Notes: a model not told the origin generated them from the letters alone. DNA of 52,164 bases from Anaerolineae bacterium (GCA_034433995.1 DAOTZU010000032.1:1-52164); one strand, 5' to 3'. Numbered from the stretch's first letter, positions 370 through 15,980 are shown. Translations and numbers: made by a program.

Positions 370-771
370 TCAAGGCCTCGCCGTGGGCGTGCGGGCCAGG
401 GTGGGCCAAGGGGTGAGCCGGGGCGCGCGGGTGGGACGCGGCAGGGATGGGCCGGGGCTCGCGCCCACCGTGGGCGTACCGGTGGACGTGGCAGTGGCCG
501 GCGCAGGGCTGGGCACCGGAGTGGTGGGCACAGGGGAGGCGGTGACCGTCGGGCTGGGCGTGCCGCCGGCGCTCACGGCCGGCAGCGAAACTTGCCTGGC
601 CGTGGGCGTGGGCATCTCGGTGGCGGCCGAGGGGCCATCTTGGTGAGGGGAAGAGAGGCCCAACCAGGGCAGTTCCGCGGATAAAACAAGGCGCACCAGG
701 ACGCTGGCCAGCAGGACCAACGCCACCAGGAAAAGCAGTGCTCCCAAGATGACCATGGGGCGCGCCCTCAT
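370..771 (-). CDS. Small membrane-anchored protein with a Pro/Thr/Ala-rich tail (hypothetical)
   Basis: In-frame MRARPMVILGALLFLVALVLLASVLVRLVL is a TM helix followed by a PT-rich low-complexity tail. Third codon positions are GC-rich in this frame. The start is uncertain (ATG 771 or ATG 756, the latter with GAGGG 8 nt upstream); the ORF-track start at 861 is probably too long. Confidence 0.45.
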   Translation of the reverse strand: MRARPMVILGALLFLVALVLLASVLVRLVLSAELPWLGLSSPHQDGPSAATEMPTPTARQVSLPAVSAGGTPSPTVTASPVPTTPVPSPAPATATSTGTPTVGASPGPSLPRPTRAPRLTPWPTLARTPTARP

Positions 772-871
772 CTCTCCCGGCGGAGACATATGGGTCATCG
801 CAGGTGATCCCCTCCCCTCGATCTCATCCCACCGCCACGCACGCCCTCGGCCATGGGGCAAAGGCGACCAT

Positions 872-1933
872 CTAGCCGAGAAGCTCCAAATTCACAAAAG
901 GCACAAAGATCTGCCGACCATCGGGCAGACGCACCTGGGCGCCCTCGGCCTTGGTGCCGATGGTGGTTTCCTGGGGCGTTTGGGGCAGCGCCACCACCTG
1001 GCCGATGCTCCCCAGGTAAGGGGGACGGGTCAACCTCACCTTCATCCCCACGGCGATAGGCCGCGCCAACACCAAAGCCTTGGCGGTGTTTTCCCCCATA
1101 GCCGGCAAGGGCACCACCAGCTCCGGGCCGCTCTGGCTCTCGGCACCGGCGATGACCGCCGGCCGACCGTGGGCCGAGACGAGCACATCCAACACCGGCG
1201 CAGCCAGGGGCACCCGCCCCATCCCCTCCGTCACGACGACGGGCAACGTGAATTGCTGGCACAGGGCGCGGACAGGGGCGGCCATCCCGCCGACCACCAG
1301 GCCGCCCAGCCGAAAACGCTGGGCGCGATAGAGGACACGCACATCCTCCAAGATGCCACCCACCACGATCATGCCGCGATGGCGCAGGCTGATCTGCTCC
1401 CAGGTGAGGAGATCTCCCGGCTCCCGCGCCATGACCACCAGGATCCCCTGGCCCTCGCCGCCGCTGCCCCAGATCCCCCGCACCACATGCCCCTGGGCGT
1501 GAATGGCCACCCCTTGATGGGGATACTCCTCCATCACCTCGCCGGGCAAATAGGCGCGGAGCTGCCGGATCTGGGCATCGCGGCGCAAAAAGAGCCGCCC
1601 CTCGATCAAGGCCAAGACGGTGCTGGCCCAAGGCGCGACCACCTGGCGTCGGTGGGGCCACGGGTGCCGGGCCCGGGCCAAGACCGTCCCTGCGGCCACT
1701 GCCTGGCCCTCCTGCACGGCGAGATACCGCTCCACCCGCCGGGCGCTCACTCCCAGAGCCTCGGCCAGGTCAATGGTGTACAGCTCGCCCTCCACCGGGG
1801 CTTGGGCCACAATATCCTCCGGCGCCACCCGATCGCCCACGTGCACCAAGACCTCGCCGGGGACGGGCAAAAAGCGCCGGCGCACGATGGAGGCGGCGAT
1901 GGCAAGACGCGGCTCAAACGGGACGATGGCCAT
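872..1933 (-). CDS. Hypothetical protein (353 aa), last gene of the GlmL-type ATPase operon
   Basis: Intact ORF whose start overlaps the upstream gene by 20 nt. The C-terminal segment GMKVRLTRPPYLGSIGQVVAL...VRLPDGRQIFVPFVNLELL looks KOW/SH3-like. I recognise no family with confidence. Confidence 0.65.
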   Translation of the reverse strand: MAIVPFEPRLAIAASIVRRRFLPVPGEVLVHVGDRVAPEDIVAQAPVEGELYTIDLAEALGVSARRVERYLAVQEGQAVAAGTVLARARHPWPHRRQVVAPWASTVLALIEGRLFLRRDAQIRQLRAYLPGEVMEEYPHQGVAIHAQGHVVRGIWGSGGEGQGILVVMAREPGDLLTWEQISLRHRGMIVVGGILEDVRVLYRAQRFRLGGLVVGGMAAPVRALCQQFTLPVVVTEGMGRVPLAAPVLDVLVSAHGRPAVIAGAESQSGPELVVPLPAMGENTAKALVLARPIAVGMKVRLTRPPYLGSIGQVVALPQTPQETTIGTKAEGAQVRLPDGRQIFVPFVNLELLG

Positions 1934-3692
1934 GATCGAGCAAATCCCCTAACCACTGCTGCAACTTGCGGCGACGATACTCGGCATCCTGGGGCAGGGC
2001 CAGCGGGCGCCCACGGGTATCCACGATGATCCCCAAATCCCCGCCACGCACCTCCGCCTTGCCTCCCTGCCCTTGGCGCCCCAGACCGATATCCCAATCG
2101 CGTCTGGGCCACACCTCGATCTGGGCCACAGCATCGGGGGGCAAAGGGAAACGCTGCACCACGCCGGCCGGAATGTCGTCCTCCACGGTGTGCCCATCAG
2201 GATAAACGATCTTGATCCGCAAGGCGCGCTCGCCTTCGCGGGCATCGCCCCGTGGGGCAAGGACGGTGCCCAAGGGGCGCAAGCCATCGCGCTCCAACAC
2301 CTGGCCAGCGGCCAGCGGGGCCACCAAAGCCAGGGCGCCCAATTGGGGCCAGATGGAGGCCCAATCCAACACCAACCAGGCCAGGCCTACAGGCTGCAAG
2401 GCATCCAGCAAGGTCAGAGCGATGACGCCATCCTGGGGCGTGTGCACCAGGGCACCGCCCCGGGCGGCGATCAGGTCAAAGGGCAGGTTGGTCTCCTCCT
2501 CCGGCTTGATCTCGGGGCGGGACCAGAACTGGTGGCGCATCCGTCGCATGGTGAGCAGGAGGGCCTGGCGAGCGATGGCCTGCACCAACAGGAGATCCTC
2601 CATCGTCTGCGGGATGCTATGGGGGCGCAGATGGATATTCTCCAACCGGTGCACGGCCTCGTCGGCGGGCATGGCCACAGGCAGCCAGCGCAACACATGG
2701 CCCAAGGGCGAAAGCTCGCTCACCCGGGCGCAGCCGAAACTGGTGCCCAGGTTCGCCCCCACGACCCACTGGTACAGTTCCCCTCGCGCGGCCCCCACAT
2801 AAGTGGTGGCGCCGCCCACGTCCACGCCCAAAATGCTTTGGGGCGGCTCATGGCGCCGGGCCATGAAACGCCAAACAATGCTCAGCGCCTCCATGGACGA
2901 GAGGATGGGCACCTGGCACCACCGCCGCAGACGCCGATAACCGGGCAGGCTGGCCAGCTTGATGCGCTCATAGATCTCGGCCAATTCGCGCTGCAATTCG
3001 CCCAGGCTTTCCAGGTGCACATTGGGGCGCACGTTATCCACCACGCGCACCTCAAAATCCGGCGACATCAACTGGGCCACGGGGCGCCGGGCCTCCTGGT
3101 TGCCGGCAAAGACGATCACCGGTCGCTTTTCCCGCGCCAACCCCTCAAAAATGGTGGTGAGCACCCGCGCCGCCCCCTGCAAAGGTGCCACCGGCCCCGT
3201 ATCCATCCCGCCCACCAAGAGGATGATATCCGGAGGCGTGCGGCGCATCTGCTCCAAGCTGCGGTCATCCCATTGGCGCATGCGCTTGCCCAGGGAGATG
3301 GTCTGCGCCACCCAAACATTGGCCGCGGCGCAGGCGTTCTTGGCGCTCTCCACGCTCAGATCGTCGGTGAGGCCCACGATGACGCACTGAAGCGCCGGGG
3401 CCGCGTTGGAGGTGGCCACAAAGGCATCCACTCCCGCGTTCGGCTCCGCCTCCGGAGTGAGGGGTTCCTCCTGGTCGTTCAACAGGCGGCGCCCGGCGAT
3501 CTCCTCCAGGCGCTTGATGGCGCGGCGGAGGCCCAGGGTGACATCACATTCCGGCTCGCGCAATGTGGTGGGCGCCTCGGCACGGGCCACAAAACGATAG
3601 ACCCCCTCCACCCGGGCGAAAAGGGCAACATGGGTTAATGTGCTGCCGATATCGGCGGCGAGGACGGAGGCGGGCAACTCGGAATCGCTCAT
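1914..3692 (-). CDS. GlmL/MutL-family (glutamate mutase L-like) ASKHA-fold ATPase, orphan (592 aa)
   Basis: N-terminal VLAADIGSTLTHVALF and internal ILGVDVGGATTYV are the two phosphate-binding motifs of sugar-kinase/actin-fold ATPases, in a GlmL-like arrangement. The ATG at 3692 overlaps the upstream stop as ATGA. The ORF-track N-terminal extension to 4178 is rejected. Confidence 0.6.
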   Translation of the reverse strand: MSDSELPASVLAADIGSTLTHVALFARVEGVYRFVARAEAPTTLREPECDVTLGLRRAIKRLEEIAGRRLLNDQEEPLTPEAEPNAGVDAFVATSNAAPALQCVIVGLTDDLSVESAKNACAAANVWVAQTISLGKRMRQWDDRSLEQMRRTPPDIILLVGGMDTGPVAPLQGAARVLTTIFEGLAREKRPVIVFAGNQEARRPVAQLMSPDFEVRVVDNVRPNVHLESLGELQRELAEIYERIKLASLPGYRRLRRWCQVPILSSMEALSIVWRFMARRHEPPQSILGVDVGGATTYVGAARGELYQWVVGANLGTSFGCARVSELSPLGHVLRWLPVAMPADEAVHRLENIHLRPHSIPQTMEDLLLVQAIARQALLLTMRRMRHQFWSRPEIKPEEETNLPFDLIAARGGALVHTPQDGVIALTLLDALQPVGLAWLVLDWASIWPQLGALALVAPLAAGQVLERDGLRPLGTVLAPRGDAREGERALRIKIVYPDGHTVEDDIPAGVVQRFPLPPDAVAQIEVWPRRDWDIGLGRQGQGGKAEVRGGDLGIIVDTRGRPLALPQDAEYRRRKLQQWLGDLLDHGHRPV

Positions 3693-4420
3693 CCCACCGG
3701 TCCCCCTTGACCTACCAGCTTGAGCCAGTCCTGCAACAAAAAGAGCAAGCGGCCGTGCAACACGGCAAAGAAGGTGAGCAATGCCCCGGCCATCAAGGCA
3801 CCGAAGGTGATCATGATCACCACCCGGCCCAGGCCGCCCAAGCCCTTGAGCAACCTGTGCCCCAAGGCGTTCAAGGGGCCGCGACCTTGGGCAGTGAAAT
3901 GAAAGGCGCTCAGCACGGCGATGGTGCCCAGGACCAGGATCAAGGCATCCACCGCATAGGCCCAACCCAACAGACCGCCGCCATGATGCGCCGGCGAGAC
4001 GGAGACGATGGCAGCGCGCAATTGGGGCACCAGCGAGCCAGTGAGGGCCCCGCCCAAGGCCAGGGCTGAACCCGTCCCCAGCAGCACCCCCAGAGGCAGA
4101 TTGGCCAGCGGGGAAAGGACACGGATGCCCCTGGCCAGAAGCAACGCGCCCAAGACGAAAAAGACGCCATAGTACCAATAGGTGTACGGCTCACGCCAGA
4201 GGAGGAGCACACGAGGCCAGAGCACCTGGTTCCAGGCCAGGGCCGCCGCATAACCGGCGGCGATGCCCACAAAAAGGTGTTCCGCCAGACGAAAGAGGAC
4301 GTTCTGGCCCAAGATGTAGCTCAACACCGCGCAGGTCAGTAGCGCGGCAACCCAGATGCCGATGATCTGCGCCAAGCCGGGCGGCGCTATGGCCGCCCAT
4401 TGCGAGAGAACCTCAAGCAT
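3689..4420 (-). CDS. Polytopic integral membrane protein (243 aa, hypothetical)
   Basis: Multiple hydrophobic helices. GAGGAGG lies 4 nt upstream of the ATG at 4420. The stop overlaps the next start. Confidence 0.7.
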   Translation of the reverse strand: MLEVLSQWAAIAPPGLAQIIGIWVAALLTCAVLSYILGQNVLFRLAEHLFVGIAAGYAAALAWNQVLWPRVLLLWREPYTYWYYGVFFVLGALLLARGIRVLSPLANLPLGVLLGTGSALALGGALTGSLVPQLRAAIVSVSPAHHGGGLLGWAYAVDALILVLGTIAVLSAFHFTAQGRGPLNALGHRLLKGLGGLGRVVIMITFGALMAGALLTFFAVLHGRLLFLLQDWLKLVGQGGPVG

Positions 4421-4443
4421 AGCGCCTCCTCATAAGCTGTTGC

Positions 4444-5931
4444 CTAACGGGAGCTGCCCAAGGGGCGCCGGCTGCGCGGCCTTTGCTCCGGCCCCTGGCT
4501 CACATAGATCGCGTTGGTGATGATGGCCATGCCCAGCACCAGCACAAAGAGCAGCGCATAGCCATCGGTCTGGGCCAGGGCATCGGGGCGCGCGCCGCTG
4601 GCGGATTCATACTCCGCCGCCCCAGCGGCGCCGTTGATCAGGGTGGCAAGCTGCCCCGCCTGGCGATAGGGGACGAGGAGGGGCTCAACCGCTGCCGTCA
4701 CCAAAGCGTGCAAGGGCACATTATGGCGACCGCCCACCTGCTCGATCCAGCGCCGCACCGTCTGGGCGTCATCGGCCAAGACGATAACCTGGTCGAAATC
4801 GCGCAGGGTGGTGAGGCCCTGGCCCAGCGGCCAGGCGCTCAAGGGGCGCTCCTGGAGCGCATCGGCCCGAAAGGCCTGCTCCAATCCGGTGCCCAAGGCC
4901 CGAAGGCCAGCCTCCTGGCCGGGCAAGTAACCGAGGATGATCCAGTTTTCGCCATAGAGGGAACGGGGCCATTCCTCCGGCATGTGCCCCAACACCCATT
5001 GCGCCTGGCCGACCCCTTGGGGCGTGAGGCTCATGGCCGCCACCTGAGCGCCGCGCCTGGCCAGATGCCGCATGAGGGCCAAGGCCAAGGGATCCAGCTC
5101 CCCCGCATAGCCGGGGCCATAGTCGAAGGAGAGGAGCACCTTGGCCCCCCGTGGGAGCGCCTCTACGGTGCGCACCAAAGCGACCACCGCCTCGCGGGGC
5201 TGCACCAGCGAGGCCGTCTGGCCGCCGGTCAAGGCGGGCGCCAGGGCCACCAAAAGGAGCAACAGGTAAAGCATCACCCGCCCCAGGCGCGGCAACGCCT
5301 TGGCCTGGCGCGGCACCACTACCCGCACGGCCTCGCGCAAGGAGGGACGCTCGGCGGCGATGCGGCGCAGCAGAGCCGCATTCAGGTGGTCCGCCTCGCT
5401 GGGCCCCTCCGCCTCGCCGGGCGCCTCCCGGTGGGGCAGAGTGGCGATGGCGGCTGCGCCGGGCAAAGGTTGCTCCAAACCGGCCAAAGGATCGGGCATC
5501 GCCTGGGCCACCGTGGCCGGCACAGGTTCGGCAGCGGGCTCTTGCCCGGGCGACTCTTCCGGGGCCTCCTGCCGAAGCGCGGGCTCCGGCGGCGCAGCCG
5601 GCGCCTCCGCCTCTGCCCCAGCGGGCAGTTCGGCCTTGGGCTCGGCGCGCTGGACCGCGGCCCGCCGATGACGCGCCGTGGACACGGGCGCCTCCTCGGC
5701 CACCCCAGGCACAAAGGGCCGGACCAGATCCTCCTCCGACGCGCCGGCCAGCGCCTGGAATTGCGGCAAGAGTGGTTCCAGACAACGCTGACAAAAGGCG
5801 CTGGAGGCCTCGTTCAAGGCGCCACAGGCGGGACAAGCCCGATAAATGAAATGTTCCAGGGAACCGCCGCAGGCCTCGCACCGGGAGGCTTGTTCCGGGT
5901 TGCGATGCTGACACGCTGGACAGACGATCAT
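4444..5931 (-). CDS. Double zinc-ribbon membrane protein with a disordered linker and a TM-flanked C-terminal domain (495 aa)
   Basis: MIVCPACQHRNPEQASRCEACGG...YRACPACGALNEASSAFCQRC gives two CxxC...CxxC ribbons. These are followed by an A/P/E-rich linker, a TM helix, a ~230-aa domain and a second TM helix. AAGGAG lies 9 nt upstream of the ATG at 5931. Confidence 0.7.
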   Translation of the reverse strand: MIVCPACQHRNPEQASRCEACGGSLEHFIYRACPACGALNEASSAFCQRCLEPLLPQFQALAGASEEDLVRPFVPGVAEEAPVSTARHRRAAVQRAEPKAELPAGAEAEAPAAPPEPALRQEAPEESPGQEPAAEPVPATVAQAMPDPLAGLEQPLPGAAAIATLPHREAPGEAEGPSEADHLNAALLRRIAAERPSLREAVRVVVPRQAKALPRLGRVMLYLLLLLVALAPALTGGQTASLVQPREAVVALVRTVEALPRGAKVLLSFDYGPGYAGELDPLALALMRHLARRGAQVAAMSLTPQGVGQAQWVLGHMPEEWPRSLYGENWIILGYLPGQEAGLRALGTGLEQAFRADALQERPLSAWPLGQGLTTLRDFDQVIVLADDAQTVRRWIEQVGGRHNVPLHALVTAAVEPLLVPYRQAGQLATLINGAAGAAEYESASGARPDALAQTDGYALLFVLVLGMAIITNAIYVSQGPEQRPRSRRPLGSSR

Positions 5932-5944
5932 CCCGTGGAACTCC

Positions 5945-6556
5945 TTATTGAGCGTAGGGCCGGTCGATCGCCAACAGGACACGCAGGGAGGTGGCGATGG
6001 TGCCCAGGGCCGTGCCCAAGATGATCCCGCGCACGCCCGCCGTCACCGGCACGGTGAGCAGCCAATCCCTCAGGGGGACCAGCACCGGCGAAAGAGAGGC
6101 GCTGAAGGGCAGTTGGGCCAAAAGGACGAACAAACTGGTGACCAGGAGGATCAACGCATGGACGCTGCGCAGCCGAAAGGCGCGATAGAGGGCGCTGACG
6201 GCAAAAAAGGCCAGGAGGGCGGTCATCGTCCCTTGCAGCGGGGCATAAAGGTAGTTAAAAACCCAATCCAGCGCCTGGGAACCGGGCAGGGCGATGCCGA
6301 TGGTCGCCGTGCCCACCAACCCCACAAGGAGCACAAGGCTGGATCCGCGCCGGCCCTCGCCTTTGGTCGCCAACCGGCGGCCGTGCACGCTCACCAGGTT
6401 CAACAGGCCCAACAAGAGGGCAAAGGCGGCCAGGATGGTGACGCCCTCCACCAGCTTGGCGCCGATGGTATCAATTTGGGGATGGGGGACAAAGAAATCC
6501 ACCAGGGTGAACAGACCACAGAGGATCGCCACGCTTACGGGCAAAACCTTTTTCAT
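5945..6556 (-). CDS. Polytopic integral membrane protein (203 aa, hypothetical)
   Basis: MKKVLPVSVAILCGLFTLVDFF... with about six hydrophobic segments, tightly packed in the operon. Confidence 0.7.
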   Translation of the reverse strand: MKKVLPVSVAILCGLFTLVDFFVPHPQIDTIGAKLVEGVTILAAFALLLGLLNLVSVHGRRLATKGEGRRGSSLVLLVGLVGTATIGIALPGSQALDWVFNYLYAPLQGTMTALLAFFAVSALYRAFRLRSVHALILLVTSLFVLLAQLPFSASLSPVLVPLRDWLLTVPVTAGVRGIILGTALGTIATSLRVLLAIDRPYAQ

Positions 6557-6568
6557 CCTTGCTTCCCC

Positions 6569-7351
6569 TCACCAATAGCCCCAGGTGGTCAGAATGACGC
6601 CGATGACGATGGTTAACAGGATGATGATACGCATGATATCCTGGGCGGCCAGGCTGCCCAGATGGCTGGGGCGGTGGAGGTACGCGCCCGCCGCATAGAC
6701 CTCCTCGCCGATGACAACCTCGTCCAGCGCGGCGGTCAAGAGGGGCATGGCCGCGGGATCGGTGGTGCCGCCCAACTGGGCGCTCCCTTGGCTCGCCATC
6801 GCCTCGGCCAGCCACAGTCCTTCGGCACCGAAACGCCCCAGAAGGACGTTGGCGGGTTGGTTCTCCACGCCCAGCAGGTGGCTGGCGCCCGCGGCATAGG
6901 CCAAAGGGTCGGGGCCATAAAAATGCACCGCCTGGCCCGGCGTGCGCTCGAGAAAGCCCGCCTCCTCCTTGGCCGTGTGCAACAGCCCTTGGGCCGCGGC
7001 CAAGAGGGTGGGATCGCCGGCCGATCCACACACCGGCTGGTCACAGGCAGCGGCGTGGCGGGCCACATAGTCGAACACGGTGAGGCCCATCACGACGTCC
7101 GGCGTGGCCTCTCCGCCGAGCGGCCCCACGCCCAAGGCCACATGGATGGGCCGCCCGCTCTCCGTGGCATAACTCACCAATTGGCGCAGTTTCTCATACA
7201 CGGGAATGGGGCGCAGCGGAAAACGTTTCCCGCCCTGGGCGCGCACCGTCAGGACAATCAAGAGCGGAAGGAAGACCAACAACACCGCCAAGGCGGCCAC
7301 ATCCACGCTGGTGGAAAAGATGTGACCGAGGAATTCGGTCAAAGATGGCAT
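6569..7351 (-). CDS. Membrane protein with N- and C-terminal TM helices flanking a soluble domain (260 aa, hypothetical)
   Basis: TM helix near the N-terminus (VAALAVLLVFLPLLIVL) and at the C-terminus (IIILLTIVIGVILTTWGYW). GAGGAGG lies 4 nt upstream of the ATG at 7351. Confidence 0.7.
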   Translation of the reverse strand: MPSLTEFLGHIFSTSVDVAALAVLLVFLPLLIVLTVRAQGGKRFPLRPIPVYEKLRQLVSYATESGRPIHVALGVGPLGGEATPDVVMGLTVFDYVARHAAACDQPVCGSAGDPTLLAAAQGLLHTAKEEAGFLERTPGQAVHFYGPDPLAYAAGASHLLGVENQPANVLLGRFGAEGLWLAEAMASQGSAQLGGTTDPAAMPLLTAALDEVVIGEEVYAAGAYLHRPSHLGSLAAQDIMRIIILLTIVIGVILTTWGYW

Positions 7352-7635
7352 GGATCCTCCTCGCGATCTGGAGCCGACGGCCCTGGAGATTCGATAGCCC
7401 GCAGCAGACGCTCAACGTTGGCCCGGTCCTCCAACAAGCGCGCATACGCGGCACTGCTTTGGCCCCACAGCGGCGCCACCAGCCACAGGCATTGGCTGCC
7501 CAGGAAACTCAACGGTTTGAGCAGCTCCAACAGCACCACCGCCGGCGCCACCAGGTTGTGGTCCACGATCCAGCGGGCCGCACGCCGGATCAGGGCGTCG
7601 GTCTCGCGCGCCACAGGCTCTGACTTGATAACCAC
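7339..7635 (-). CDS. Small hypothetical protein (98 aa)
   Basis: GTG start at 7635 with GGGAG 7 nt upstream. The 3' end overlaps the next gene by 13 nt. It has one hydrophobic segment. Confidence 0.5.
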   Translation of the reverse strand: MVIKSEPVARETDALIRRAARWIVDHNLVAPAVVLLELLKPLSFLGSQCLWLVAPLWGQSSAAYARLLEDRANVERLLRAIESPGPSAPDREEDPCHL

Positions 7636-7647
7636 CGTCTTACTCCC

Positions 7648-8592
7648 TCAAGGACGGTGCTGCAAGTTCTTGCGGATGCGCTGCCATTGGCGACGCAGGC
7701 GGCTGAACAGCCCCATCTCGCGATGGGTGATGGCCTCGATGGCCGTCTGGGCCACTTGGCCAATGGAGCGCCCAAACAGGGTCGCCTGGTCGGTCAACAA
7801 CTGCTCCAGGGCCGGAATCGCGCCCACGCCACCGACCTGGCCCAGGCCACGGGCGGCGTACCAGCGGATGCCGGGATCCGGATCGTGCAAGCAACGCTCC
7901 AAAAGCTCCGGCGCCTTGGCACAGGACATATGGCCCAGAGCCGCCACCGCTGCTGCGCGCGCCAAAGGGTGCTCATCGCCCAGCAATTGCTCCAGAGCCG
8001 GCACAGCGGCCGGATCGGCGATGGCGCCCAGGGCATCCGCCGCGGCCTTGCGCACCCAAAGGGAAGGATCGCGCAGGGCCTTGAGCAGGGGTTCCACGGC
8101 GGCGCGATCGCCGATTTGGCCCAAGGCGGCGGCGACGCTGGCCCGCACCGATGGATCGGTGTCTTGCAAGGCCTCCAACAGAAACTCGACGCCGGCCTCG
8201 TGCTCCCAGAGGGCCAAAGAATCGGCCGTGGCGGCGCGGCGGATGGGGTTAGGATCGCGCAGGCTCTGCCGCATCAGCAGCAACAGCCCGCTGAAGGTCA
8301 GCTCCGGGGCTTGGCGGTTCCACAGCGGGGCGCCCAGGTGGGCCCGCCGGCGCAGGCGCTCGGCGATCTGCGCCAGCCCCACCCCCGCTTGCCAGCGGAC
8401 AAAGGGGTGCTCATCGGCCAGGTAGGCGTATAAGGTGCGCACCGCTCGCTGGTCCCCCTGGCCCGAAAGCTGGATCGCCTCCTGCCAACGGCGCAAAGCT
8501 TCCTGGTCGGCGTCATCCGCGACGAACCGGTCGCCGAGGGCGGCTATACTGGGTTGAGAACTCAACAGAGGTGCTCCTTCGGCAAATCTCAT
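7648..8592 (-). CDS. HEAT-repeat (PBS-lyase/E-Z type) protein (314 aa)
   Basis: Repeated units of the form DPSVRASVAAALGQIGDRAAVEPLLKAL / DPSLWVRKAAADALGAIADPAAVPALEQLL / DPDPGIRWYAARGLGQVG. The start is taken as ATG 8592, directly behind a promoter. The ORF-track start at 8889 would read through the repeat elements. Confidence 0.8.
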   Translation of the reverse strand: MRFAEGAPLLSSQPSIAALGDRFVADDADQEALRRWQEAIQLSGQGDQRAVRTLYAYLADEHPFVRWQAGVGLAQIAERLRRRAHLGAPLWNRQAPELTFSGLLLLMRQSLRDPNPIRRAATADSLALWEHEAGVEFLLEALQDTDPSVRASVAAALGQIGDRAAVEPLLKALRDPSLWVRKAAADALGAIADPAAVPALEQLLGDEHPLARAAAVAALGHMSCAKAPELLERCLHDPDPGIRWYAARGLGQVGGVGAIPALEQLLTDQATLFGRSIGQVAQTAIEAITHREMGLFSRLRRQWQRIRKNLQHRP

Positions 8593-8599
8593 TGTGCTC

Positions 8600-8628
8600 A
8601 GTATAGCACGCCTGGGCCAGAGGTGCAA
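8600..8628 (-). promoter_or_regulatory. Candidate promoter giving a leaderless mRNA for the HEAT-repeat gene and its operon
   Basis: The minus strand reads TTGCAC (8628-8623), a 17-nt spacer, TATACT (8605-8600), then exactly 7 nt to the ATG at 8592. There is no Shine-Dalgarno. Confidence 0.55.
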
Positions 8629-8659: not shown

Positions 8660-8799
8660 GAGGGTGTCGAGAAATGCCCCCGTCGGTTAGAAACCGACGT
8701 CTGAGGATGGTAAGCCCGCGCCGCGGGCTTGGCAAGCAGAGCCGTCGGATTCCATCCGACGGCGGGCAAGACGTCTACACGCCCTTTTTCAATACCCTC
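8660..8799. repeat. 140-bp structured repeat element, copy 1
   Basis: The termini GAGGGTGTCGAGAAA ... TTTTTCAATACCCTC form a 15-bp closing stem. Three internal hairpins lie at 8681-8699 (8 bp), 8712-8730 (8 bp) and 8741-8763 (9 bp). Confidence 0.9.
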
Positions 8800-8813
8800 C
8801 TGTTCCCGGCAAA

Positions 8814-8953
8814 GAGGGTGTCGAGAAATGCCCCCGTCGGTTAGAAACCGACGTCTGGGGATGGTAAGCCCGCGCCGCGGGCTTGACAAGCAGAGCCGTC
8901 GGATTCCATCCGACGGCGGGCAAGGCCTCTATGCGCCTTTTTTCAACACCCTC
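8814..8953. repeat. 140-bp structured repeat element, copy 2
   Basis: Identical in length to copy 1. It differs from copy 3 at a single position (8886 A versus 9056 G). Confidence 0.9.
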
Positions 8954-8983
8954 CTGGCGCAATACGCAATAGCACGCTCCCTG

Positions 8984-9123
8984 GAGGGTGTCGAGAAATG
9001 CCCCCGTCGGTTAGAAACCGACGTCTGGGGATGGTAAGCCCGCGCCGCGGGCTTGGCAAGCAGAGCCGTCGGATTCCATCCGACGGCGGGCAAGGCCTCT
9101 ATGCGCCTTTTTTCAACACCCTC
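8984..9123. repeat. 140-bp structured repeat element, copy 3
   Basis: Same 140-bp unit. Copies 1 and 3 also share a 16-nt left flank, AATAGC(G/A)CGCTCCCTG (8644-8659 and 8968-8983). Confidence 0.9.
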
Positions 9124-9134
9124 GATCTCTTACT

Positions 9135-9163
9135 TTGACGCGCCGGCGGGGACGCCGTACAAT
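9135..9163 (+). promoter_or_regulatory. Candidate sigma70-type promoter for the CPBP protease gene
   Basis: TTGACG (9135-9140), a 17-nt spacer, TACAAT (9158-9163). It starts 12 nt after repeat copy 3. Confidence 0.6.
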
Positions 9164-9238
9164 CAAGCAGCGTGGAGCGTCTTGGCCTTCTCAGCGGTCC
9201 GGACCCTCCGGCGCAGATGCGTGCAGCAAAGGAGTCTC

Positions 9239-9952
9239 GTGTCCCTTCAGGAAAAGCGCAAGGGCGATCCTGTGGCCTGGGGATTGAAGGACATGCTCTG
9301 GGCGAGCCTCACCGCCATCGCCCTGGTGCTGGCCGGCCTCATCGCCCTGATCATTTTCCTGGCGCTCTTCCAGGCGCTGAGGGGCAGCCCGCTGGACCAA
9401 AAGGTCTGGATCTGGGGCGTCCTGGCCCTGGAGAGCATCCTCGTCGTGCCGGCCTGGTTCTGGGGGCCGCGCAAGTATGGCCAGGGGTGGGCCAGCTTGG
9501 GGTTACATGCCTTTCCCGTGGTCAAAACGTTGGTGCTGGCCCTCATCAGCTTGCCCCTGATGCTGCTGATCAATGCAGGCTGGGAGCTGGTGCGCCGGCA
9601 ATTGGGTTGGGCCGGCCAGCCGAATTATTTGCCCCTCTTTGGCGGCGGACCGCTGGGGCTGGCGCTGGCCTTGCTGATCGGCGGCGTGATCGCCCCGATA
9701 GCGGAAGAGATTTTCTTTCGGGGCTACCTGTACGCGGGATTGCGCAGTCGCCTCGGCTTGGGCTGGGGCTTGGTCCTTTCGGCGCTCCTCTTTGCCGTGC
9801 TCCATGTGATCCCCGGCGTCATCCCGCCCATCTTTCTTCTGGGGTTGATCCTCGCGACGGTCTATGAATATAGCGGCTCCCTCTGGCCCGCCATCCTCCT
9901 GCACAGCGCCATCAACACATTGGCCTTTGTGGCCGCCTACCTCACAGGATGA
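9239..9952 (+). CDS. CPBP-family (CAAX/Abi-type) intramembrane glutamic endopeptidase
   Basis: The motifs EEIFFRGYL, FAVLH and HSAINT sit in a polytopic membrane protein. The GTG at 9239 is preceded by AAAGGAG (9228-9234); the alternative start is ATG 9293. The ORF-track start at 9053 lies inside repeat copy 3. Confidence 0.85.
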   Translation: MSLQEKRKGDPVAWGLKDMLWASLTAIALVLAGLIALIIFLALFQALRGSPLDQKVWIWGVLALESILVVPAWFWGPRKYGQGWASLGLHAFPVVKTLVLALISLPLMLLINAGWELVRRQLGWAGQPNYLPLFGGGPLGLALALLIGGVIAPIAEEIFFRGYLYAGLRSRLGLGWGLVLSALLFAVLHVIPGVIPPIFLLGLILATVYEYSGSLWPAILLHSAINTLAFVAAYLTG

Positions 9953-9997
9953 ACCCAGGCTCCAGCGAATAGATCCCCATCTTGACCCGGAGCAGAT

Positions 9998-10030
9998 GGC
10001 GGGGCCGCCCCTATGGGGGGCGGCCCCGCC
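9998..10030. terminator. GC-rich hairpin between convergent genes (candidate bidirectional terminator)
   Basis: GGCGGGGCCGCCCC (9998-10011) pairs perfectly with GGGGCGGCCCCGCC (10017-10030) around a 5-nt loop. There is no clear U-tract. Confidence 0.5.
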
Positions 10031-10037
10031 GGTTCAG

Positions 10038-13000
10038 CTAGCGTCCGGCCGCGATGGTAAAGAGCGCCCCCGCCGAGCGCCCAAAGACATCGGCAAAGTA
10101 CATCTCGTAGGCCAGGGCAGGCAACACCCGAAACTCGCCCGGCGTGGTGCAGCGGAAAGAGTAGATATACTCATACGTGCCACGAGGCAGGTTGCTGGCA
10201 AAGAGGACCACCTTCTCGTCGCGCAGCTCGGTGTGGGTGGCCCAGTGCCAATGCCAATCCCACCAACCGCGCTCCTGCTCGGGCAGCTCCTTGGTTAGCT
10301 CCGGCCGCTGGGCGGTGGCGCTGGTCGTCTGCAAGCTGGTATCAATGGCCTCACCGCCGGCGGGCAAAGGATCTTCCAACACCAAGAAGTACAGATCGTT
10401 GGGCGCGATCATGGTCAGCTTGACCACCACCACGTCGTTCACCTTGGCCTGGGTGATGGGCGTCTTGAGGTCCCCGGCCAAATAGTACTGCCGATCCACG
10501 ATGATACCCCGGTTCAGGGCGCCCATCTGTTCCACGGGCAAAAAGTAGCGCAAAAAGATGCTATAGTACAGCGTGCCCGGGCCCGTTTTATCCAAAATGA
10601 CATCGTTATCCCCGGCCAAAAGCTCGCCCACCGGCACCTGGGCCCTGACGGCCCGGCCCACATTCTCCGAGGTCACGTCGCCTTCGGCCCGCTCCAGCCC
10701 GTTGATGCGCAAGAGATAGTGATAGTTCCCCTGGAGCTCGCCCGTGAGCACCATGTAATCGGTGAGGGCCAAGATGGACCAGACGTTCTCCTGGGTCGTC
10801 TCCCAGCGCCCGCTCTGGCGCGCGGTCATCAACCAGCGCACCACGTTGGGCAACAGGCTGCTCTCGGGCTGGAGACGCACCAGGGCGCGCAAGATGATGG
10901 CCGTGGTGCGGGTGTCGGTGTTCATCGCCCAGGGATCGCGCTGCGCCTCCTCCCAGTGGGCGCCCGTGGCGCTGAGGATGGCCGCGTTGGCCAAGGCGTT
11001 CACCAGCGTTTTGAGGCGCGCCGTGTCCTGGGAGTTGGTCAGGTGCAGCGCCATGGCCAAGTAGGCCTTGGCATAGAGGGACATCTCGCCTTTGCCATCC
11101 ACCAGCGCCACCGTGCGGCCCAGATCCCCGCGGCCCGCCTCGGCCAAAGTGTAGAGCACCACCGCTTGGATATCGCGCAGCTGCCGCTGGGAACGGGCGC
11201 TGGCCGCGAACTGCTCCAGCCAACCATAAAGGTAAGCGATGCCGCGCTCCAGCACCTGCTGGTCCACGCTGAAATCGGCCTTTTGGGCCTCCACCAGCCC
11301 CAGCACCACATACGCGCTGAGCAAGGGCGAGCTGTCCTCCCGGGCCCACCAGCCCCAGCCGCCATCGGGGTTCTGCAAGGCATAGATGCGCTGCAGGCCG
11401 ATGCCCACCTGCTCCGGTAGCTTGGCCTCCAGCTCGGCGTTGGCGATGCCCAACTTTTGCAGGGCGCCGTAAGTGACCACATTGGGCAAGAAGCGGCTCA
11501 CCGTCTGCTCGATGCAGCCATAGGGGTAGGTCTCCAGATACTCCAAGCCCCCGCGCATGCCGGCGGCCAAGGAGGGCTCCAGGTTCACCGTCAGCTCACC
11601 CAGGCTGCGATCCACCGCCTCCGGCAAGCGCACCAACTCGATGATCTGCTCCTCCACCTGGCCCGCTGTGCCCACCGTCTCCGGCGAGCTGGGATGGTAA
11701 ACGGGCAAGGTGAGCTGGATCGCGTCGCTGTATTGGCCCGCGCTCACGTTAAAGCGTAGCACGGCCCGTTCCGCCGCCCCCACCGCCGCCGGCCAAGAGA
11801 GCGCCTCCCGCCCATGGGCGGCCACGGTCACCTTCTGTTCGCCGTTGGCCACGGTGACCCCTTCAGCGACGAGCTTGACCGTCATCTCCAGGTCTTGCCC
11901 GGTGTTATTGTGCACCACCGCGCCCAGGATGGGCTTGTCGCCGATGACCAGGAAGCGCGGCACCACCGGGCGCACCATCACATCCAGGGTGCTGACGATG
12001 TCGCTGGTGGCCTTGCCCACTTGGGTTTGGGCCGTCACTCCTTGGGCGGTCAGGCGCCAGGTGGTGAGGTTATCCGGCAATTTGACGGTGACTCGGGCCT
12101 TGCCGGCAGCATCGGTGCGCACCGCCGGCGCCCAGAAGGCGGTATCGGGGAACTCTTGGCGCAAGATGCCCGCCGCCTCGGCGCCGCCACCGCCACCCTT
12201 GGCCTCGGCCACCTGTTGCTGTTGGTAGCGCTCCACGGCGATGGCCAAAGTGGCCGCCGTCCACACCCCCAAGGGGCGCTGACGATAGAACTCTTGGACG
12301 ATATCTCGCTGCCCGCCGCCCACCAACGACTCCACGGCCAGGTCCACCAATTGTAGCGAAACCTCGGCCTCCACACCGCGCCCACGATGATCCAAGACCT
12401 CCAAGGAGTAGGTCACCTCATCCCGTGGCTTGTAGGGGGTGGCGCGATCGGGGGTCACCTTGATGGTGAGCTCCTGCTGTTCGGTGGAGACCTCCAATAT
12501 CACGTAACCCAGCTTAAAAGAGGGCACAGGATTGGCCCGATCCATCCCTTTGATGATGACCACCGAAACATACACATTGGGCGCATATTCCGGCAGGATG
12601 GGAAGGCTCAGGCGCTCGCTGTTGGTCGCCAGCTCGATGACCCGATGCTCCAGGATGTGGCCGCGCTCGATGGTGAGCAGGGCCATCGTTCGCCCTTGAT
12701 AGGGCGAGGGGATGAGGATCTGGGCCGTCTCACCGGGACGGTAGGATTTCTTGTCGGCCACCAGGTCAATCCGGTCGTTGTTCGCCTGCCGCCAGGGGAT
12801 GAACCCGGCGCCGCCGACCCACAAGAAGGCCGCGCTCTGCACCTTGTTTTCGCGCTCATCCAGGCCCACGGCCAAGATCTTGAACATCCCACCCTCCGGT
12901 GGGGTGAAGCGGGCGATGGCCTGCCCCAGATCATCCGTCTTGACCGTGGTGGTGTGCACCGCCGTATCGCGCACCTTGCTGGTCCAATAGTAGCGGCCGT

Positions 13001-15980
13001 CGTCAGCCTTTTCTTGCACGCTGTACCATTCGTGGCGATAGAAGGTGATGGTGAGGGCTTGCTGGGTGCGGGTGATCCCATGGGTATCCACGGTGATAAC
13101 CCGCACCGCCTGCTCCTGGCCGGCGACGCCCACATAGCTCAGCGGCGCCAAACCGATGTAAAATAGCCCCTTGTGCACCACGGCGGCGCGGCGGGCGCTC
13201 ACCTCCTGGTTATTCACGTCCACCACCGAAAATTCGATGGTGTAGGTCTGGCTCTGGGTGAACTCGGCAAGGTTGGCCGGTATCTCCACCACAAAGCGCC
13301 CTTGGGCATCGGTCTTGCCCTCGCCCTCGGTGAGGAGCTCACCCCAGGAGCTGGCCGGCCCATAGCCGTAGGTCTCGTCATAGTTGGCAAAGCTGTAATA
13401 CCCCTTGCCCTGCCAACGATCAAAGTAATAATCTTGGCGCAAGACCCGCCACTGGACGCTGGCATTGGCCACGGGGCCGCCAAAGAAATAGGTGGCCTCC
13501 GCCGCCGCCACGATGGTATCTCCATGGATGTAATCCTCTTGATCCAGGTTCACCTGCACCTGGAACTCGGGCTTGCGGTACGCGGCCACCTGGAAATCGG
13601 CGCTAAAGGCGTACTCGTCATAGGTTGCCTGCAGGGAATAGTAGCCCAGAGCAGCATCCTCACCCAGGGCGATCTCGCCGGCAAAGGTGCCCAGCGTGTT
13701 CAAAGCAACCTTCTGATGCCAGATCTCGCGCCATTCCCCATCCCGCAAGACGAGGAGCACCTCGCCACCTTGGGGGGGCAAGCTGTAGCGCCCATCATCA
13801 TCCAAGCGCAGGATGCCCTTGAAATAGACCGTCTGGCCGGGGCGGTAGATGCGCCGATCGGTATACAGATAGGCGCGGAACTGCTCCAGGCTGGGCGAGC
13901 CGGAGAGGTTGAAGGACCAAGGCTCCAATCCGTCGGACCAATGGCGCGAGACCAAGGCATAGCCCGCGCCCCGCTTGGCCAGGACGATGAGCGGCTGCCA
14001 GGGCTCCTGTTCGGGAACCGCCGCCTTCAAGAGGCCATCTCCATTGGTGGTGCCCCCGGCCACGCGCTGCCCTTCGGCGTTATAGATGGCCACCTGCACC
14101 CCCGCCACCGGCTGGCCCTCCCGCAGGTCGGTGGCCCAGACCAAGGCCTCCGTCTGGGTGCTCTTCAAGGTCAGGTTCGTATCCGAGACGATCAGGAGCT
14201 GCCGGGCCACGTTCTTGGTCTCTGGCGCCGAGGCCTGGAGATAGTAAAAGCCCGGCGTCAGCTTCTGGCCAGCAGCCAGAGCCAATGTCTGGGAGAGGGT
14301 TCGGGTGGCATTCAAGGGGGCTTGGGTGGGCAGCGACCAACGCTTGAGCAGGCTATCCGCTTGGGGAGCGTATTTTTGCCAACGCGCCCAAAAATCCTTG
14401 CCGATCAACTTGACCATCTCCTCGGGCGCCACGGCATAAAGGGCCAGGTCCACCCGCGAGACGTTGCGATATTGCACCGAGACGGTGGTCTCGGCGTAGG
14501 CGTTGTAGCTGCTATACGGATTCGGCGTGTTGAACCCCACCCAAGGGTCATAGGGCCGGGTGCGAAAATGCAAGGTCACGGGCGCCTGCAGGGGATGGCC
14601 ATAGATCCCCCGGATCTCGGTGGAAAAGGTCACGGTGTACCAGGTGGAGGGCTTCAGGGAGCCGGCCAGGTGCAGCACCGTCTTGTCTCGCTCCCACCAA
14701 TCGTAAAGCTTGGCGGTGGGGGTGATGGAAAAGCCCTTGAGGAAGGTATCTTGGCTGATGGGGCTGGAGAAGGTGATGATCAAGCCATCGCCCACGGGCC
14801 AGTTGCCCTCGCCCTCCTTGGGGCGGGTGGCGACCACGGCCGGCGCGCTCACCACGGTGAACTGCCACGTGTAGGCCTGGGGGATGACGGCCTGGCCCGT
14901 CGCCGCGGCCGCGCCCTCGGCCAGCCGCGCCTGATATTGGGCGCCCAGCTCCAGCGGCTGGGTGGGTTTAAAGACCAGGCTGTTGTCTTTCCAGGAAAAG
15001 ACGCCGGGGATGGATAGCCGATCCCGCGTCAACGAGAAGCGCGCCTGGGTCTGTTGGTGATCCATGGGTTGGTTGAAGGTGATGGTGATGGCGGTGGTGG
15101 GCGCCACATGCCGCGCCTTGTCCTCCGGATAGGTCTTGACCACCCGGGGCAAGGCCGTGGTGAAGGACCACACATAGTCTTCGGCCAAGACGCCGCCGGT
15201 GGTATCTTGCAGGCCGGCCCGCACCCGCACCGTGTACTTGGTGCCGGGCAGCAACAATCCGCTCGGCTCAAAAGTATAGAGCGAAGTGTTGATCCAACTC
15301 CCCTTGCCCTGGATCGGGGGCGTGAATTCCAGGGGCTGGGGCAGCTTGGCCTGCTCTTGCACCCCCGTGAGGGGCACCACAGGACGGTTAAAGGCCACGC
15401 GGATGACGGTGTTCGCGTCCACGTCGGTGCTCTCGGCCAGGGGCAAGACATCCGTCACCTGCAGATAGCCCACCGTGCGGAAGCGGAACTCCACCGGCCG
15501 GGCCAGCCCCAACTTGCGGGCGCTCTGGGCGGCCGTATCCACCGTGACGCGATATTCCGTATCCCGCTGCCATTTGCCCTCTTCCGGGATAAAGCGCACC
15601 GTGCGCGGATCTTGCCAGGAGAACTTGCCCCTCACCACCGGCTCGATGCGAAAGGCCTTCTCCAGAGAGGCCGGGTCCATCTCTTGGTCAAAGCGCAAGA
15701 GGATGGGCTGATCCAGCGCCTGTTCCTCGCCACGTTCGGGCGAACGGCTCAGTAACCGGGGTGGCTGGGGCGGCAGGGGCGTCGTCGTGGCCTTGGGGGT
15801 TGCCGTGGCTTTGGGAGCGGCGGTGGCGCCCGGCGTGGCCGTCGCCTGAACCTTGCTCGGCGCTGTGGGCGCCACAGTGGCCGATGGGGGCGGCGTCGGC
15901 GGCTTGCTGCAGCCCATCAGCCCACCCACCAAGGTCACCAAAAGGACCATGCAAAAGATGCGATATGCGCGCCGGCTCAT
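10038..15980 (-). CDS. Alpha-2-macroglobulin family lipoprotein with a thioester site (1980 aa)
   Basis: Signal peptide plus lipobox (LVGGLMGC). N-terminal SbsA/Big_5-like Ig repeats, then macroglobulin domains. The thioester motif is YPYGCIEQTVSRF. The ATG at 15980 overlaps the pbpC stop as ATGA. Confidence 0.9.
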   Translation of the reverse strand: MSRRAYRIFCMVLLVTLVGGLMGCSKPPTPPPSATVAPTAPSKVQATATPGATAAPKATATPKATTTPLPPQPPRLLSRSPERGEEQALDQPILLRFDQEMDPASLEKAFRIEPVVRGKFSWQDPRTVRFIPEEGKWQRDTEYRVTVDTAAQSARKLGLARPVEFRFRTVGYLQVTDVLPLAESTDVDANTVIRVAFNRPVVPLTGVQEQAKLPQPLEFTPPIQGKGSWINTSLYTFEPSGLLLPGTKYTVRVRAGLQDTTGGVLAEDYVWSFTTALPRVVKTYPEDKARHVAPTTAITITFNQPMDHQQTQARFSLTRDRLSIPGVFSWKDNSLVFKPTQPLELGAQYQARLAEGAAAATGQAVIPQAYTWQFTVVSAPAVVATRPKEGEGNWPVGDGLIITFSSPISQDTFLKGFSITPTAKLYDWWERDKTVLHLAGSLKPSTWYTVTFSTEIRGIYGHPLQAPVTLHFRTRPYDPWVGFNTPNPYSSYNAYAETTVSVQYRNVSRVDLALYAVAPEEMVKLIGKDFWARWQKYAPQADSLLKRWSLPTQAPLNATRTLSQTLALAAGQKLTPGFYYLQASAPETKNVARQLLIVSDTNLTLKSTQTEALVWATDLREGQPVAGVQVAIYNAEGQRVAGGTTNGDGLLKAAVPEQEPWQPLIVLAKRGAGYALVSRHWSDGLEPWSFNLSGSPSLEQFRAYLYTDRRIYRPGQTVYFKGILRLDDDGRYSLPPQGGEVLLVLRDGEWREIWHQKVALNTLGTFAGEIALGEDAALGYYSLQATYDEYAFSADFQVAAYRKPEFQVQVNLDQEDYIHGDTIVAAAEATYFFGGPVANASVQWRVLRQDYYFDRWQGKGYYSFANYDETYGYGPASSWGELLTEGEGKTDAQGRFVVEIPANLAEFTQSQTYTIEFSVVDVNNQEVSARRAAVVHKGLFYIGLAPLSYVGVAGQEQAVRVITVDTHGITRTQQALTITFYRHEWYSVQEKADDGRYYWTSKVRDTAVHTTTVKTDDLGQAIARFTPPEGGMFKILAVGLDERENKVQSAAFLWVGGAGFIPWRQANNDRIDLVADKKSYRPGETAQILIPSPYQGRTMALLTIERGHILEHRVIELATNSERLSLPILPEYAPNVYVSVVIIKGMDRANPVPSFKLGYVILEVSTEQQELTIKVTPDRATPYKPRDEVTYSLEVLDHRGRGVEAEVSLQLVDLAVESLVGGGQRDIVQEFYRQRPLGVWTAATLAIAVERYQQQQVAEAKGGGGGAEAAGILRQEFPDTAFWAPAVRTDAAGKARVTVKLPDNLTTWRLTAQGVTAQTQVGKATSDIVSTLDVMVRPVVPRFLVIGDKPILGAVVHNNTGQDLEMTVKLVAEGVTVANGEQKVTVAAHGREALSWPAAVGAAERAVLRFNVSAGQYSDAIQLTLPVYHPSSPETVGTAGQVEEQIIELVRLPEAVDRSLGELTVNLEPSLAAGMRGGLEYLETYPYGCIEQTVSRFLPNVVTYGALQKLGIANAELEAKLPEQVGIGLQRIYALQNPDGGWGWWAREDSSPLLSAYVVLGLVEAQKADFSVDQQVLERGIAYLYGWLEQFAASARSQRQLRDIQAVVLYTLAEAGRGDLGRTVALVDGKGEMSLYAKAYLAMALHLTNSQDTARLKTLVNALANAAILSATGAHWEEAQRDPWAMNTDTRTTAIILRALVRLQPESSLLPNVVRWLMTARQSGRWETTQENVWSILALTDYMVLTGELQGNYHYLLRINGLERAEGDVTSENVGRAVRAQVPVGELLAGDNDVILDKTGPGTLYYSIFLRYFLPVEQMGALNRGIIVDRQYYLAGDLKTPITQAKVNDVVVVKLTMIAPNDLYFLVLEDPLPAGGEAIDTSLQTTSATAQRPELTKELPEQERGWWDWHWHWATHTELRDEKVVLFASNLPRGTYEYIYSFRCTTPGEFRVLPALAYEMYFADVFGRSAGALFTIAAGR

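Follow-up and report, generated by a model that had tools for sequence, protein, structure and literature searches.

What does an ATPase of the GlmL/MutL family do in a gene cluster in which its neighbours are membrane proteins? GlmL (MutL) is an accessory protein whose gene is flanked by glmS and glmE, which encode glutamate mutase, and a role as chaperone of the B12 enzyme is presumed. In the 52,164-nucleotide (nt) stretch of Anaerolineae bacterium DNA analyzed here (GCA_034433995.1, DAOTZU010000032.1:1-52164; the whole stretch is called the window), a member of this family is encoded in a run of eight minus-strand genes, numbered g1 to g8 in the order of transcription. Seven of them, g2 to g8, are best explained as the Chloroflexota version of a two-module system common to Bacteria and Archaea. 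The coordinates below come from the open reading frame (ORF) listing of the window and the domain calls from Pfam; lengths are in amino acids (aa).

7648-8592, minus strand: g1, HEAT-repeat protein, 314 aa (Pfam HEAT_2, 4.5e-43)
7339-7635, minus strand: g2, small protein, 98 aa, with a conserved hydrophobic hairpin
6569-7351, minus strand: g3, DUF6754 protein, 260 aa (Pfam PF20539, 7e-42)
5945-6556, minus strand: g4, polytopic membrane protein, 203 aa, about six transmembrane segments by hydropathy
4444-5931, minus strand: g5, double zinc ribbon membrane protein, 495 aa (DZR, 2e-8, N-terminal)
3689-4420, minus strand: g6, polytopic membrane protein, 243 aa, about six transmembrane segments by hydropathy
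1914-3692, minus strand: g7, ASKHA ATPase, 592 aa (Pfam MutL PF13941, 1.3e-65, residues 10-468)
872-1933, minus strand: g8, soluble protein with a KOW-like C-terminus, 353 aa (Spt5/L24 profile matches and AlphaFold model)
370-861, minus strand: possible ninth gene of uncertain status, one N-terminal transmembrane segment and a Pro/Thr-rich tail (ORF listing)

The eight genes lie where an earlier reading of this DNA, made from the sequence alone (the sequence-only reading), had placed them, and the three overlaps it described were all found: the stop of g6 and the start of g7 share the ATGA at 3689-3692, g7 and g8 overlap by 20 nt (1914-1933), and g2 and g3 by 13 nt (7339-7351). Two of its statements on the layout had to be corrected. 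Gaps of 13 nt at most were claimed throughout, whereas g5 and g6 are separated by 23 nt (4421-4443), and the run does not stop at g8 but goes on along the same strand with the Pro/Thr-rich ORF at 370-861 and then with gatC (about 246 to the window edge). Its domain calls were borne out by Pfam for the HEAT repeats of g1, the double zinc ribbon of g5 and the MutL domain of g7; the KOW/SH3-like C-terminus of g8 agrees with Spt5/L24 profile matches (4e-4) and with the AlphaFold model. The membrane nature of g3 to g6 was likewise confirmed by hydropathy, with two transmembrane segments in g3 and in g5.

The distribution of the cluster was approached from the ATPase. A protein search with g7 returned 183 relatives, nearly all of about 590 aa; those with a name came mostly from Chloroflexota metagenome-assembled genomes (MAGs) and bore the label "glutamate mutase L" or "hypothetical". 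A scan of one genome per species detected a g7 relative with the same C-terminal motif in at least 572 species. The bacterial carriers belong to the Chloroflexota, Armatimonadota, Planctomycetota (Brocadiia), Poribacteria, Eisenbacteria, TA06, Acidobacteriota and Symbiobacterium, and the archaeal ones to the Methanomethylicia, Culexarchaeia, Bathyarchaeia and Nitrososphaerota. The flanks of g7 loci were then analyzed by tblastn and hidden Markov model searches. All seven genes g2 to g8 were present at 22 of the 40 ATPase-seeded loci with enough flanking sequence, and g8 was present at 31 of the 40; the genes co-occur more than by chance. They were found as a unit in Chloroflexota, Planctomycetota, Eisenbacteria, Nitrospirota, Symbiobacterium and archaea, including one Nitrososphaerota and one Bathyarchaeia genome, and their order varied as follows.

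g2-g3-g4-g5-g6-g7-g8: Chloroflexota
g2-g7-g8-g3-g4-g5-g6: Brocadiia, Eisenbacteria, Zipacnadia, Nitrospirota
g3-g6 ... g2-g7-g8: Symbiobacterium, Bathyarchaeia
divergent modules: a Nitrososphaerota MAG

Judged from gene content and order, the conserved unit consists of the seven genes g2 to g8 and is made up of two separable modules, a predicted soluble module A (g2, g7 and g8, in none of which a transmembrane segment is predicted) and a predicted membrane module B (g3-g4-g5-g6). Homologues of the HEAT gene g1 occurred at only nine unique related loci, all from Anaerolineae-type relatives within the Chloroflexota, a pattern by which g1 classes as a lineage-specific accessory outside the conserved core. 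The eight-gene block of the sequence-only reading was thus upheld as a conserved unit for g2 to g8, well beyond the Chloroflexota, but not for g1, which is shared by close Anaerolineae relatives only. In the reverse direction, metagenome contigs were scanned with g4, and an alignment built from a closer set of sequences gave at least 585 relatives. In most of the long loci recovered in this way module A adjoins module B, the commonest order being g2-g7-g8-g3-g4-g5-g6. Two loci carry two tandem copies of module B behind one module A: in L158 the doubled module B is preceded by g2-g7-g8, and in L141 by a g8 that is cut by the contig end. At L122, g2 accompanies module B without g7 or g8. By its distribution, the system classes as a widespread seven-gene, two-module one and not as an oddity of the Chloroflexota.

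Natural fusions also link the parts. The 995-aa protein P0314 consists of g7 followed by g8, and its g7 part is 32% identical to the window protein (1e-99). At L039, from a Chloroflexia MAG, the double zinc ribbon is found at the N-terminus of g7 instead of on g5, which puts the ATPase and the N-terminal end of g5, predicted to be cytoplasmic, in one functional neighborhood.

We then asked how close g7 is to GlmL. It matched the Pfam MutL model with 222.3 bits (cut-off 27) over model positions 1-448 of 450, and like GlmL/MutL it has an ASKHA fold with conserved phosphate-binding motifs. In contrast, it scored 89.4 bits against the NCBIfam GlmL equivalog NF040745 (cut-off 475) and 54 bits against the subfamily model TIGR01319 (cut-off 204), and alignment with these GlmL models was limited to the N-terminal half of the protein. 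The g7 family, at about 590 aa, extends some 125 to 130 aa beyond the Pfam model and is about 130 aa longer than GlmL; the additional C-terminal part comprises a beta domain (residues ~470-560) and, behind it, a basic, amphipathic helix (570-585) whose Trp580 is invariant in 63 homologues. Furthermore, in the loci examined g7 does not stand beside glmS/glmE, oraS/oraE or any B12 enzyme, but instead with g8 and usually four membrane proteins. The label "GlmL-type" holds at the Pfam level only, and by score, genomic context and length g7 falls outside the GlmL orthologues as defined by these models. Of the assignment to the GlmL/MutL branch made in the sequence-only reading, the Pfam membership stands and the NCBIfam cut-offs speak against the rest. 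A profile search for another ASKHA family with a known partner left g7 in Pfam MutL, with no such partner present: neither GlmS/GlmE nor HyuB nor DdrB was seen nearby. No B12-binding or mutase domain was detected in the operon, in the 21 larger ORFs of the window that were scanned or in the annotated related loci, in agreement with the earlier remark that glmS/glmE and B12 enzymes are absent from the operon.

The hallmarks of an ASKHA protein were found in g7, namely the phosphate-1 (DxGxT), phosphate-2 (DxGG) and adenosine (GG) motifs and a two-lobed fold. Among the 63 homologues G16, T20 and G293 are invariant and D14, D291 and T297 are kept in at least 90%; in the adenosine motif G412 is invariant and G413 is kept in at least 90%. 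Because its ATP-binding motifs are invariant or nearly so, g7 is probably an active nucleotide switch. No sequence relatives of g7 were found in the PDB. The AlphaFold model of g7 was of high confidence (pLDDT 91.4, pTM 0.91), and Foldseek returned 317 PDB matches at E<=0.001, the best 50 of which were all of ASKHA fold. Hydantoinase-A-type subunits came first (E 4e-11 to 4e-9), for example N-methylhydantoinase 9h03 (3.6e-11), acetophenone carboxylase 5l9w and the acetone carboxylases 5svc and 5m45; PilM, FtsA, Hsp70 and diol dehydratase reactivase came next (E 1e-8 to 1e-6).

The soluble partner g8 is predicted (AlphaFold, pLDDT 89.3) to contain an N-terminal barrel-sandwich hybrid domain, an alpha/beta domain (~150-275) and the C-terminal KOW/SH3-like barrel. 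PDB matches were obtained at the level of single domains, and no whole-chain match was found among solved structures. The first domain gave weak RnfC_N or biotin-lipoyl Pfam matches in some homologues, and the middle domain carries a conserved TEGxG motif and gave weak RraA-like matches (target TM-score ~0.5). Since g8 lacks any conserved His, Cys or Lys, a role as phospho-, lipoyl- or biotinyl-carrier is unlikely, and the idea of a phosphocarrier was dropped for this reason. The family is large: a profile search of 1.84 billion cluster representatives (50% identity clustering) gave 1,249 representatives at E<=1e-30. The hydrophobic hairpin of g2 is conserved as PAxxFLE..KPLSFLGSQ and its gene lies directly upstream of the ATPase gene in other phyla; we propose that g2 is an adaptor.

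In module B, the topologies of g3 and g5 were predicted from positive-inside statistics on 34 to 43 homologues. The g3 protein is built of a transmembrane segment, an alpha/beta domain of about 190 aa and a second transmembrane segment. Its mean number of Lys plus Arg residues is 0.3 before the first segment and 3.2 after it (34 homologues), and the DUF6754 domain is accordingly predicted to be cytoplasmic. Outside the Chloroflexota, g3 has an additional signal-peptide-like segment and a beta-rich N-terminal extension, which fits an extracellular N-terminus. In g5 the double zinc ribbon is followed by a low-complexity linker, a transmembrane segment, a conserved core of about 210 aa, a second transmembrane segment and a basic tail. 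The corresponding Lys plus Arg values are 2.8 before the first segment, 0.9 after it and 2.7 in the C-terminal tail, so that the core domain is predicted to be extracytoplasmic and the zinc ribbon cytoplasmic. With the g3 domain inside and the g5 core outside, the complex would have domains on both faces of the membrane. The linker between zinc ribbon and first segment can reach more than 1,000 aa in Chloroflexota, and outside this phylum, including in archaea, g5 lacks the zinc ribbon and has a minimal length of 273-281 aa. The g4 protein carries the motifs AAYRAFRxR and GxRG...LG, which are Arg-rich, and an invariant Arg176. In profile searches g4, g6 and the g5 core gave no meaningful Pfam match and no sequence relative in the PDB. 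They matched none of the known transporter families considered (ABC, ECF, TRAP, Rnf/Nqr and others), and the annotated related loci showed no ABC ATPase. Two suppositions on these proteins were given up: that g3 and g5 are paralogues (hhalign probability 26%, opposite predicted topologies), and that the cluster is a known anti-phage defence system, as no PADLOC model matched g2 to g8 and g1 gave only generic HEAT matches.

How the two modules may work together can be stated only tentatively. The reading we put forward, at somewhat less than an even chance, is that module A is a switch driven by ATP and that module B, to which it is coupled, forms a platform for transport or assembly across the membrane. 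It is supported by the 22 complete loci out of 40, the varied gene orders, the fusions, the topology, the ATP motifs and the overlaps in the window. What has been observed or computed is which genes the cluster contains, their conservation and fusions, the predicted topologies and the conservation of the ATP-binding motifs; that the proteins form a physical complex, that coupling runs in the direction given below and that transport takes place at all is what we infer. Module A would bind to module B from the cytoplasmic side, with the g3 domain, g2 and the C-terminal helix of g7 as candidate contact sites. Binding and hydrolysis of ATP would act as a conformational switch, the changes in module A would pass via g3, g4 and g6 to the outer domain of g5, and the switch would drive the translocation or assembly of a substrate handled by that domain. 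Such a device would amount to a transporter, or a mechanotransducer, in which an actin-fold ATPase takes the place of an ABC or AAA+ protein as the source of power. Lineage-specific accessories are, in this scheme, the HEAT-repeat protein, the Pro/Thr-rich ORF and two parts of g5, its zinc ribbon and its disordered linker. The suggestion of the sequence-only reading that the ATPase has been recruited to a membrane-associated machine gains support from the conserved block and from the fact that no B12 partner was found. Its further idea, that translational coupling implies stoichiometric co-assembly, is a conjecture.

Several observations weigh against an energized membrane machine. The nearest solved structures to g7 are soluble ATP-dependent enzymes and not motors, and for g4 and g6 no likeness to a transporter family emerged from Pfam or from PDB sequence profiles. 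The modules also occur apart: module B stands alone at L088, L128, L153 and L161, the g7-g8 pair stands alone in several archaea and in Brocadia, and solitary g7-like ATPases occur in Armatimonadota and Poribacteria.

The first of these points leads to an unlikely, though not negligible, alternative, a membrane-anchored metabolic enzyme or group translocation system, in which a hydantoinase-type g7 phosphorylates or activates a small molecule that g3 to g6 take up or channel. The best Foldseek matches are indeed N-methylhydantoinase and the acetophenone and acetone carboxylases, and some g7 homologues give weak hydantoinase matches in Pfam (Hydantoinase_A; PF05378); the window g7, however, has no Hydantoinase_A match, its TM-scores to hydantoinase subunits are only about 0.3, which denotes likeness at the level of the fold, and hydantoinase-type enzymes are soluble. 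No HyuB-like catalytic partner was seen at any locus. As to neighbors, amidohydrolase genes adjoin the cluster in Symbiobacterium (L081) and Bathyarchaeia (L060), a pyridoxal phosphate (PLP)-dependent enzyme is encoded within 10 kb at nine loci, and glycine-cleavage or 2-oxoacid dehydrogenase and lipoate genes adjoin the cluster in Eisenbacteria, TA06 and Nitrospirota, yet no metabolic neighbor is kept across phyla, and the enrichment in PLP enzymes is weak and comes from loci that are not phylogenetically independent. PLP-enzyme and amidohydrolase neighbors were dropped as a functional clue, being too sporadic, and so was a link to lipoate and glycine cleavage, which a tblastn survey showed to be lineage-specific. 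The ATPase could also serve as an actin-like membrane scaffold in the manner of PilM or FtsA, organizing or positioning envelope proteins, possibly as an oligomer, and not energizing transport; we give this only a small chance. PilM 5eoy (1.6e-8, target TM-score 0.40) and FtsA (1e4f, 4a2b) are among the Foldseek matches, the amphipathic basic helix with the invariant Trp580 is reminiscent of the membrane-targeting helix of FtsA, with a putative membrane role in g7, and g3 and g5 would be bitopic partners, as found with the cytoplasmic-face ASKHA proteins of the PilM-PilN-PilO and FtsA systems. The hydantoinase-clade matches are nevertheless stronger than those to PilM and FtsA, which remain at the fold level; Pfam finds neither family in g7, and no PilN-like N-terminal binding peptide was identified. 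The g2-g8 cluster contains no pilus or division genes, and g3 to g6 are unrelated to PilN/O. Polymerization is not known in the hydantoinase/GlmL clade. A paper on the actin superfamily mentions hydantoinase and glutamate mutase only as non-polymerizing members (PMC5597319).

That g7 keeps the presumed function of its Pfam family, and reactivates or loads a cobalamin enzyme encoded elsewhere while the membrane module supplies the cofactor, is highly doubtful. Its MutL membership, the weak NCBIfam matches to GlmL and to a GlmL-related protein of ornithine degradation, and a Foldseek match to the diol dehydratase reactivase 2d0o (4e-7) are in line with such a role. They are set against scores far under the GlmL cut-offs, the C-terminal extension outside the Pfam model and the lack of B12-binding or mutase domains in the sequences scanned, as described above; moreover, neither CbiM/N/Q nor Btu families were recovered with the membrane proteins. 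It is finally barely credible that the clustered genes are unrelated and packed together by chance. The lineage-specific HEAT gene and zinc ribbon and the occasional unlinking of the two modules could be taken that way, but g2 to g8 occur together in several phyla of both Bacteria and Archaea and in three different orders, natural fusions join their parts, and starts and stops overlap in the window.

Set beside characterized systems, the proposed ATP-driven switch with its membrane platform has partial counterparts only. In DdrAB and EutA an ASKHA protein acts as a nucleotide-driven switch on a partner protein, as proposed for g7, whereas the g2-g8 cluster has no DdrB-like subunit or B12 enzyme. 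The RraA fold is of the same "swivelling" beta/beta/alpha class as one DdrA domain, but the RraA likeness of the middle domain of g8 is weak. MacB, FtsEX and LolCDE share with the cluster the anatomy of a cytoplasmic ATPase and membrane proteins with a large outside domain between two transmembrane segments; as g7 is not of the ABC type and neither a sequence nor a structural relationship was detected, this would be a functional analogy of anatomy alone. In its proposed way of working g7 would be most like the membrane switch ATPases PilM, FtsA and DdrA, although it lies outside those families. No entry in Pfam, the PDB or PADLOC describes a g2-g8 system, and no description was found in a full-text search of literature whose coverage was incomplete and partly obscured by optical character recognition noise; the sequence-only reading, too, could name no described system of this composition. 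We rate the system as outside every described kind, its membrane proteins having been compared by sequence alone.

A candidate function is thereby offered for a large block of "hypothetical" genes, given the some 1,250 representatives of the g8 family and the 572 or more genomes with the ATPase. If the reading is true, an actin-fold ATPase would power a transmembrane process in a clade so far known from soluble enzymes and accessory proteins of B12 enzymes only. The cluster would, quite possibly though short of probably, stand for an ancient class of membrane machine of Bacteria and Archaea. Its energy would come from an actin-fold ATPase of the GlmL/hydantoinase clade with a dedicated hybrid-barrel/KOW partner, and not from an ABC, AAA+ or other P-loop ATPase, and four membrane proteins with domains on either side of the membrane would form the platform to which this ATPase is coupled. 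The presence of carriers among TACK archaea and distant bacterial phyla suggests an old origin or wide horizontal transfer. For annotation, caution is advised: hundreds of records name the g7-type ATPase "glutamate mutase L", which would suggest B12-dependent glutamate fermentation, of which there is no sign at these loci.

Transcription of the window cluster could start from a candidate promoter upstream of g1.

8600-8628, minus strand: candidate promoter, -35 TTGCAC (8628-8623), 17-nt spacer, extended -10 TGcTATACT (TATACT at 8605-8600)

Direct reading of the sequence confirmed the positions of these hexamers, which the sequence-only reading had indicated. The element was not called in a consensus promoter scan because its -35 agrees with the consensus at only three of six positions. 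Comparable TGGTATACT elements precede the HEAT gene at two related loci (L003 and L010). The TATACT is 7 nt from the ATG at 8592, which speaks for the leaderless transcript of the sequence-only reading. An in-frame TTG (8565-8563) lies 27 nt downstream of this ATG and is preceded, 8 nt upstream, by AAGGAG (8579-8574), so that a 27-nt leader with a start at 8565 is an equally good reading of the sequence; with this alternative, the 3/6 match and the lack of a promoter call, a leaderless start is not established. Clear GGAGG-like Shine-Dalgarno sequences precede most internal genes, those of g7 and g8 being weaker.

Some related loci depart from the common pattern or have distinctive neighbors. 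In L081, from a Symbiobacterium thermophilum MAG, two paralogous g7-like ATPases are encoded (5851-7713 and 9962-11827), one after g3-g6 and the other between g2 and g8, with the amidohydrolase gene after g8. In the complete Fimbriimonadales genome L052 (9986-14694), a solitary g7-like ATPase is directly followed by Wzz-type and Wza-type polysaccharide export genes and has neither g8 nor a membrane module nearby. Within the Eisenbacteria/TA06 group the cluster lies between gcvT/H/P and the lipoate-protein ligase gene lplA at L085, and gcv genes are upstream of it at L048, L032 and L054; at L084 (Nitrospirota) it comes after 2-oxoacid dehydrogenase E1/E2 genes and the lipoyl synthase gene lipA. 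Several non-Chloroflexota loci encode, just upstream of g2 or g3, a family of about 146 aa with two transmembrane segments and a small C-terminal domain. It had no Pfam match and may, in those lineages, form an eighth component associated with the core. Its members are:

L085, 7379-7819
L081, 2159-2611
L077, 7693-8223
L065, 7199-7645
L032, 1164-1706
L122, 7945-8376

On the other side of the cluster, the gene after g8 at 15 related loci encodes a transmembrane segment, a Pro/Thr-rich linker, an xPxTG motif, a hydrophobic stretch or transmembrane segment and a basic tail, a C-terminal arrangement resembling the sorting signals of sortase substrates. In the window, the ORF at 370-861 has the transmembrane segment and the Pro/Thr-rich part, and no C-terminal xPxTG signal was found in it. 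The genes after g8 with xPxTG include the following.

L003, 13105-13617
L011, 12887-13330
L021, 5777-6265
12 further loci

The intergenic region between the operon and its divergent neighbor contains, directly upstream of the promoter, 2.9 tandem copies of a 170-bp unit (8660-9123; 90% matches). One unit is predicted to fold into a long hairpin (-82 kcal/mol; z = -5.3 relative to shuffled sequences); the palindrome at its core was found nowhere else in the window, and no Rfam match was obtained. The divergent gene (9053-9952, plus strand) encodes a CAAX/Rce1-like membrane protease. The repeats extend through the N-terminal part of this long ORF, so the gene probably starts further downstream. 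Beyond it, a 1,980-aa bacterial alpha-2-macroglobulin (10038-15980, minus strand) is encoded downstream of a class A penicillin-binding protein with transglycosylase and transpeptidase domains (15977-18508, minus strand), the two genes overlapping by 4 nt; we take this pair (10038-18508) to match the alpha-2-macroglobulin/PbpC gene pair of other bacteria.

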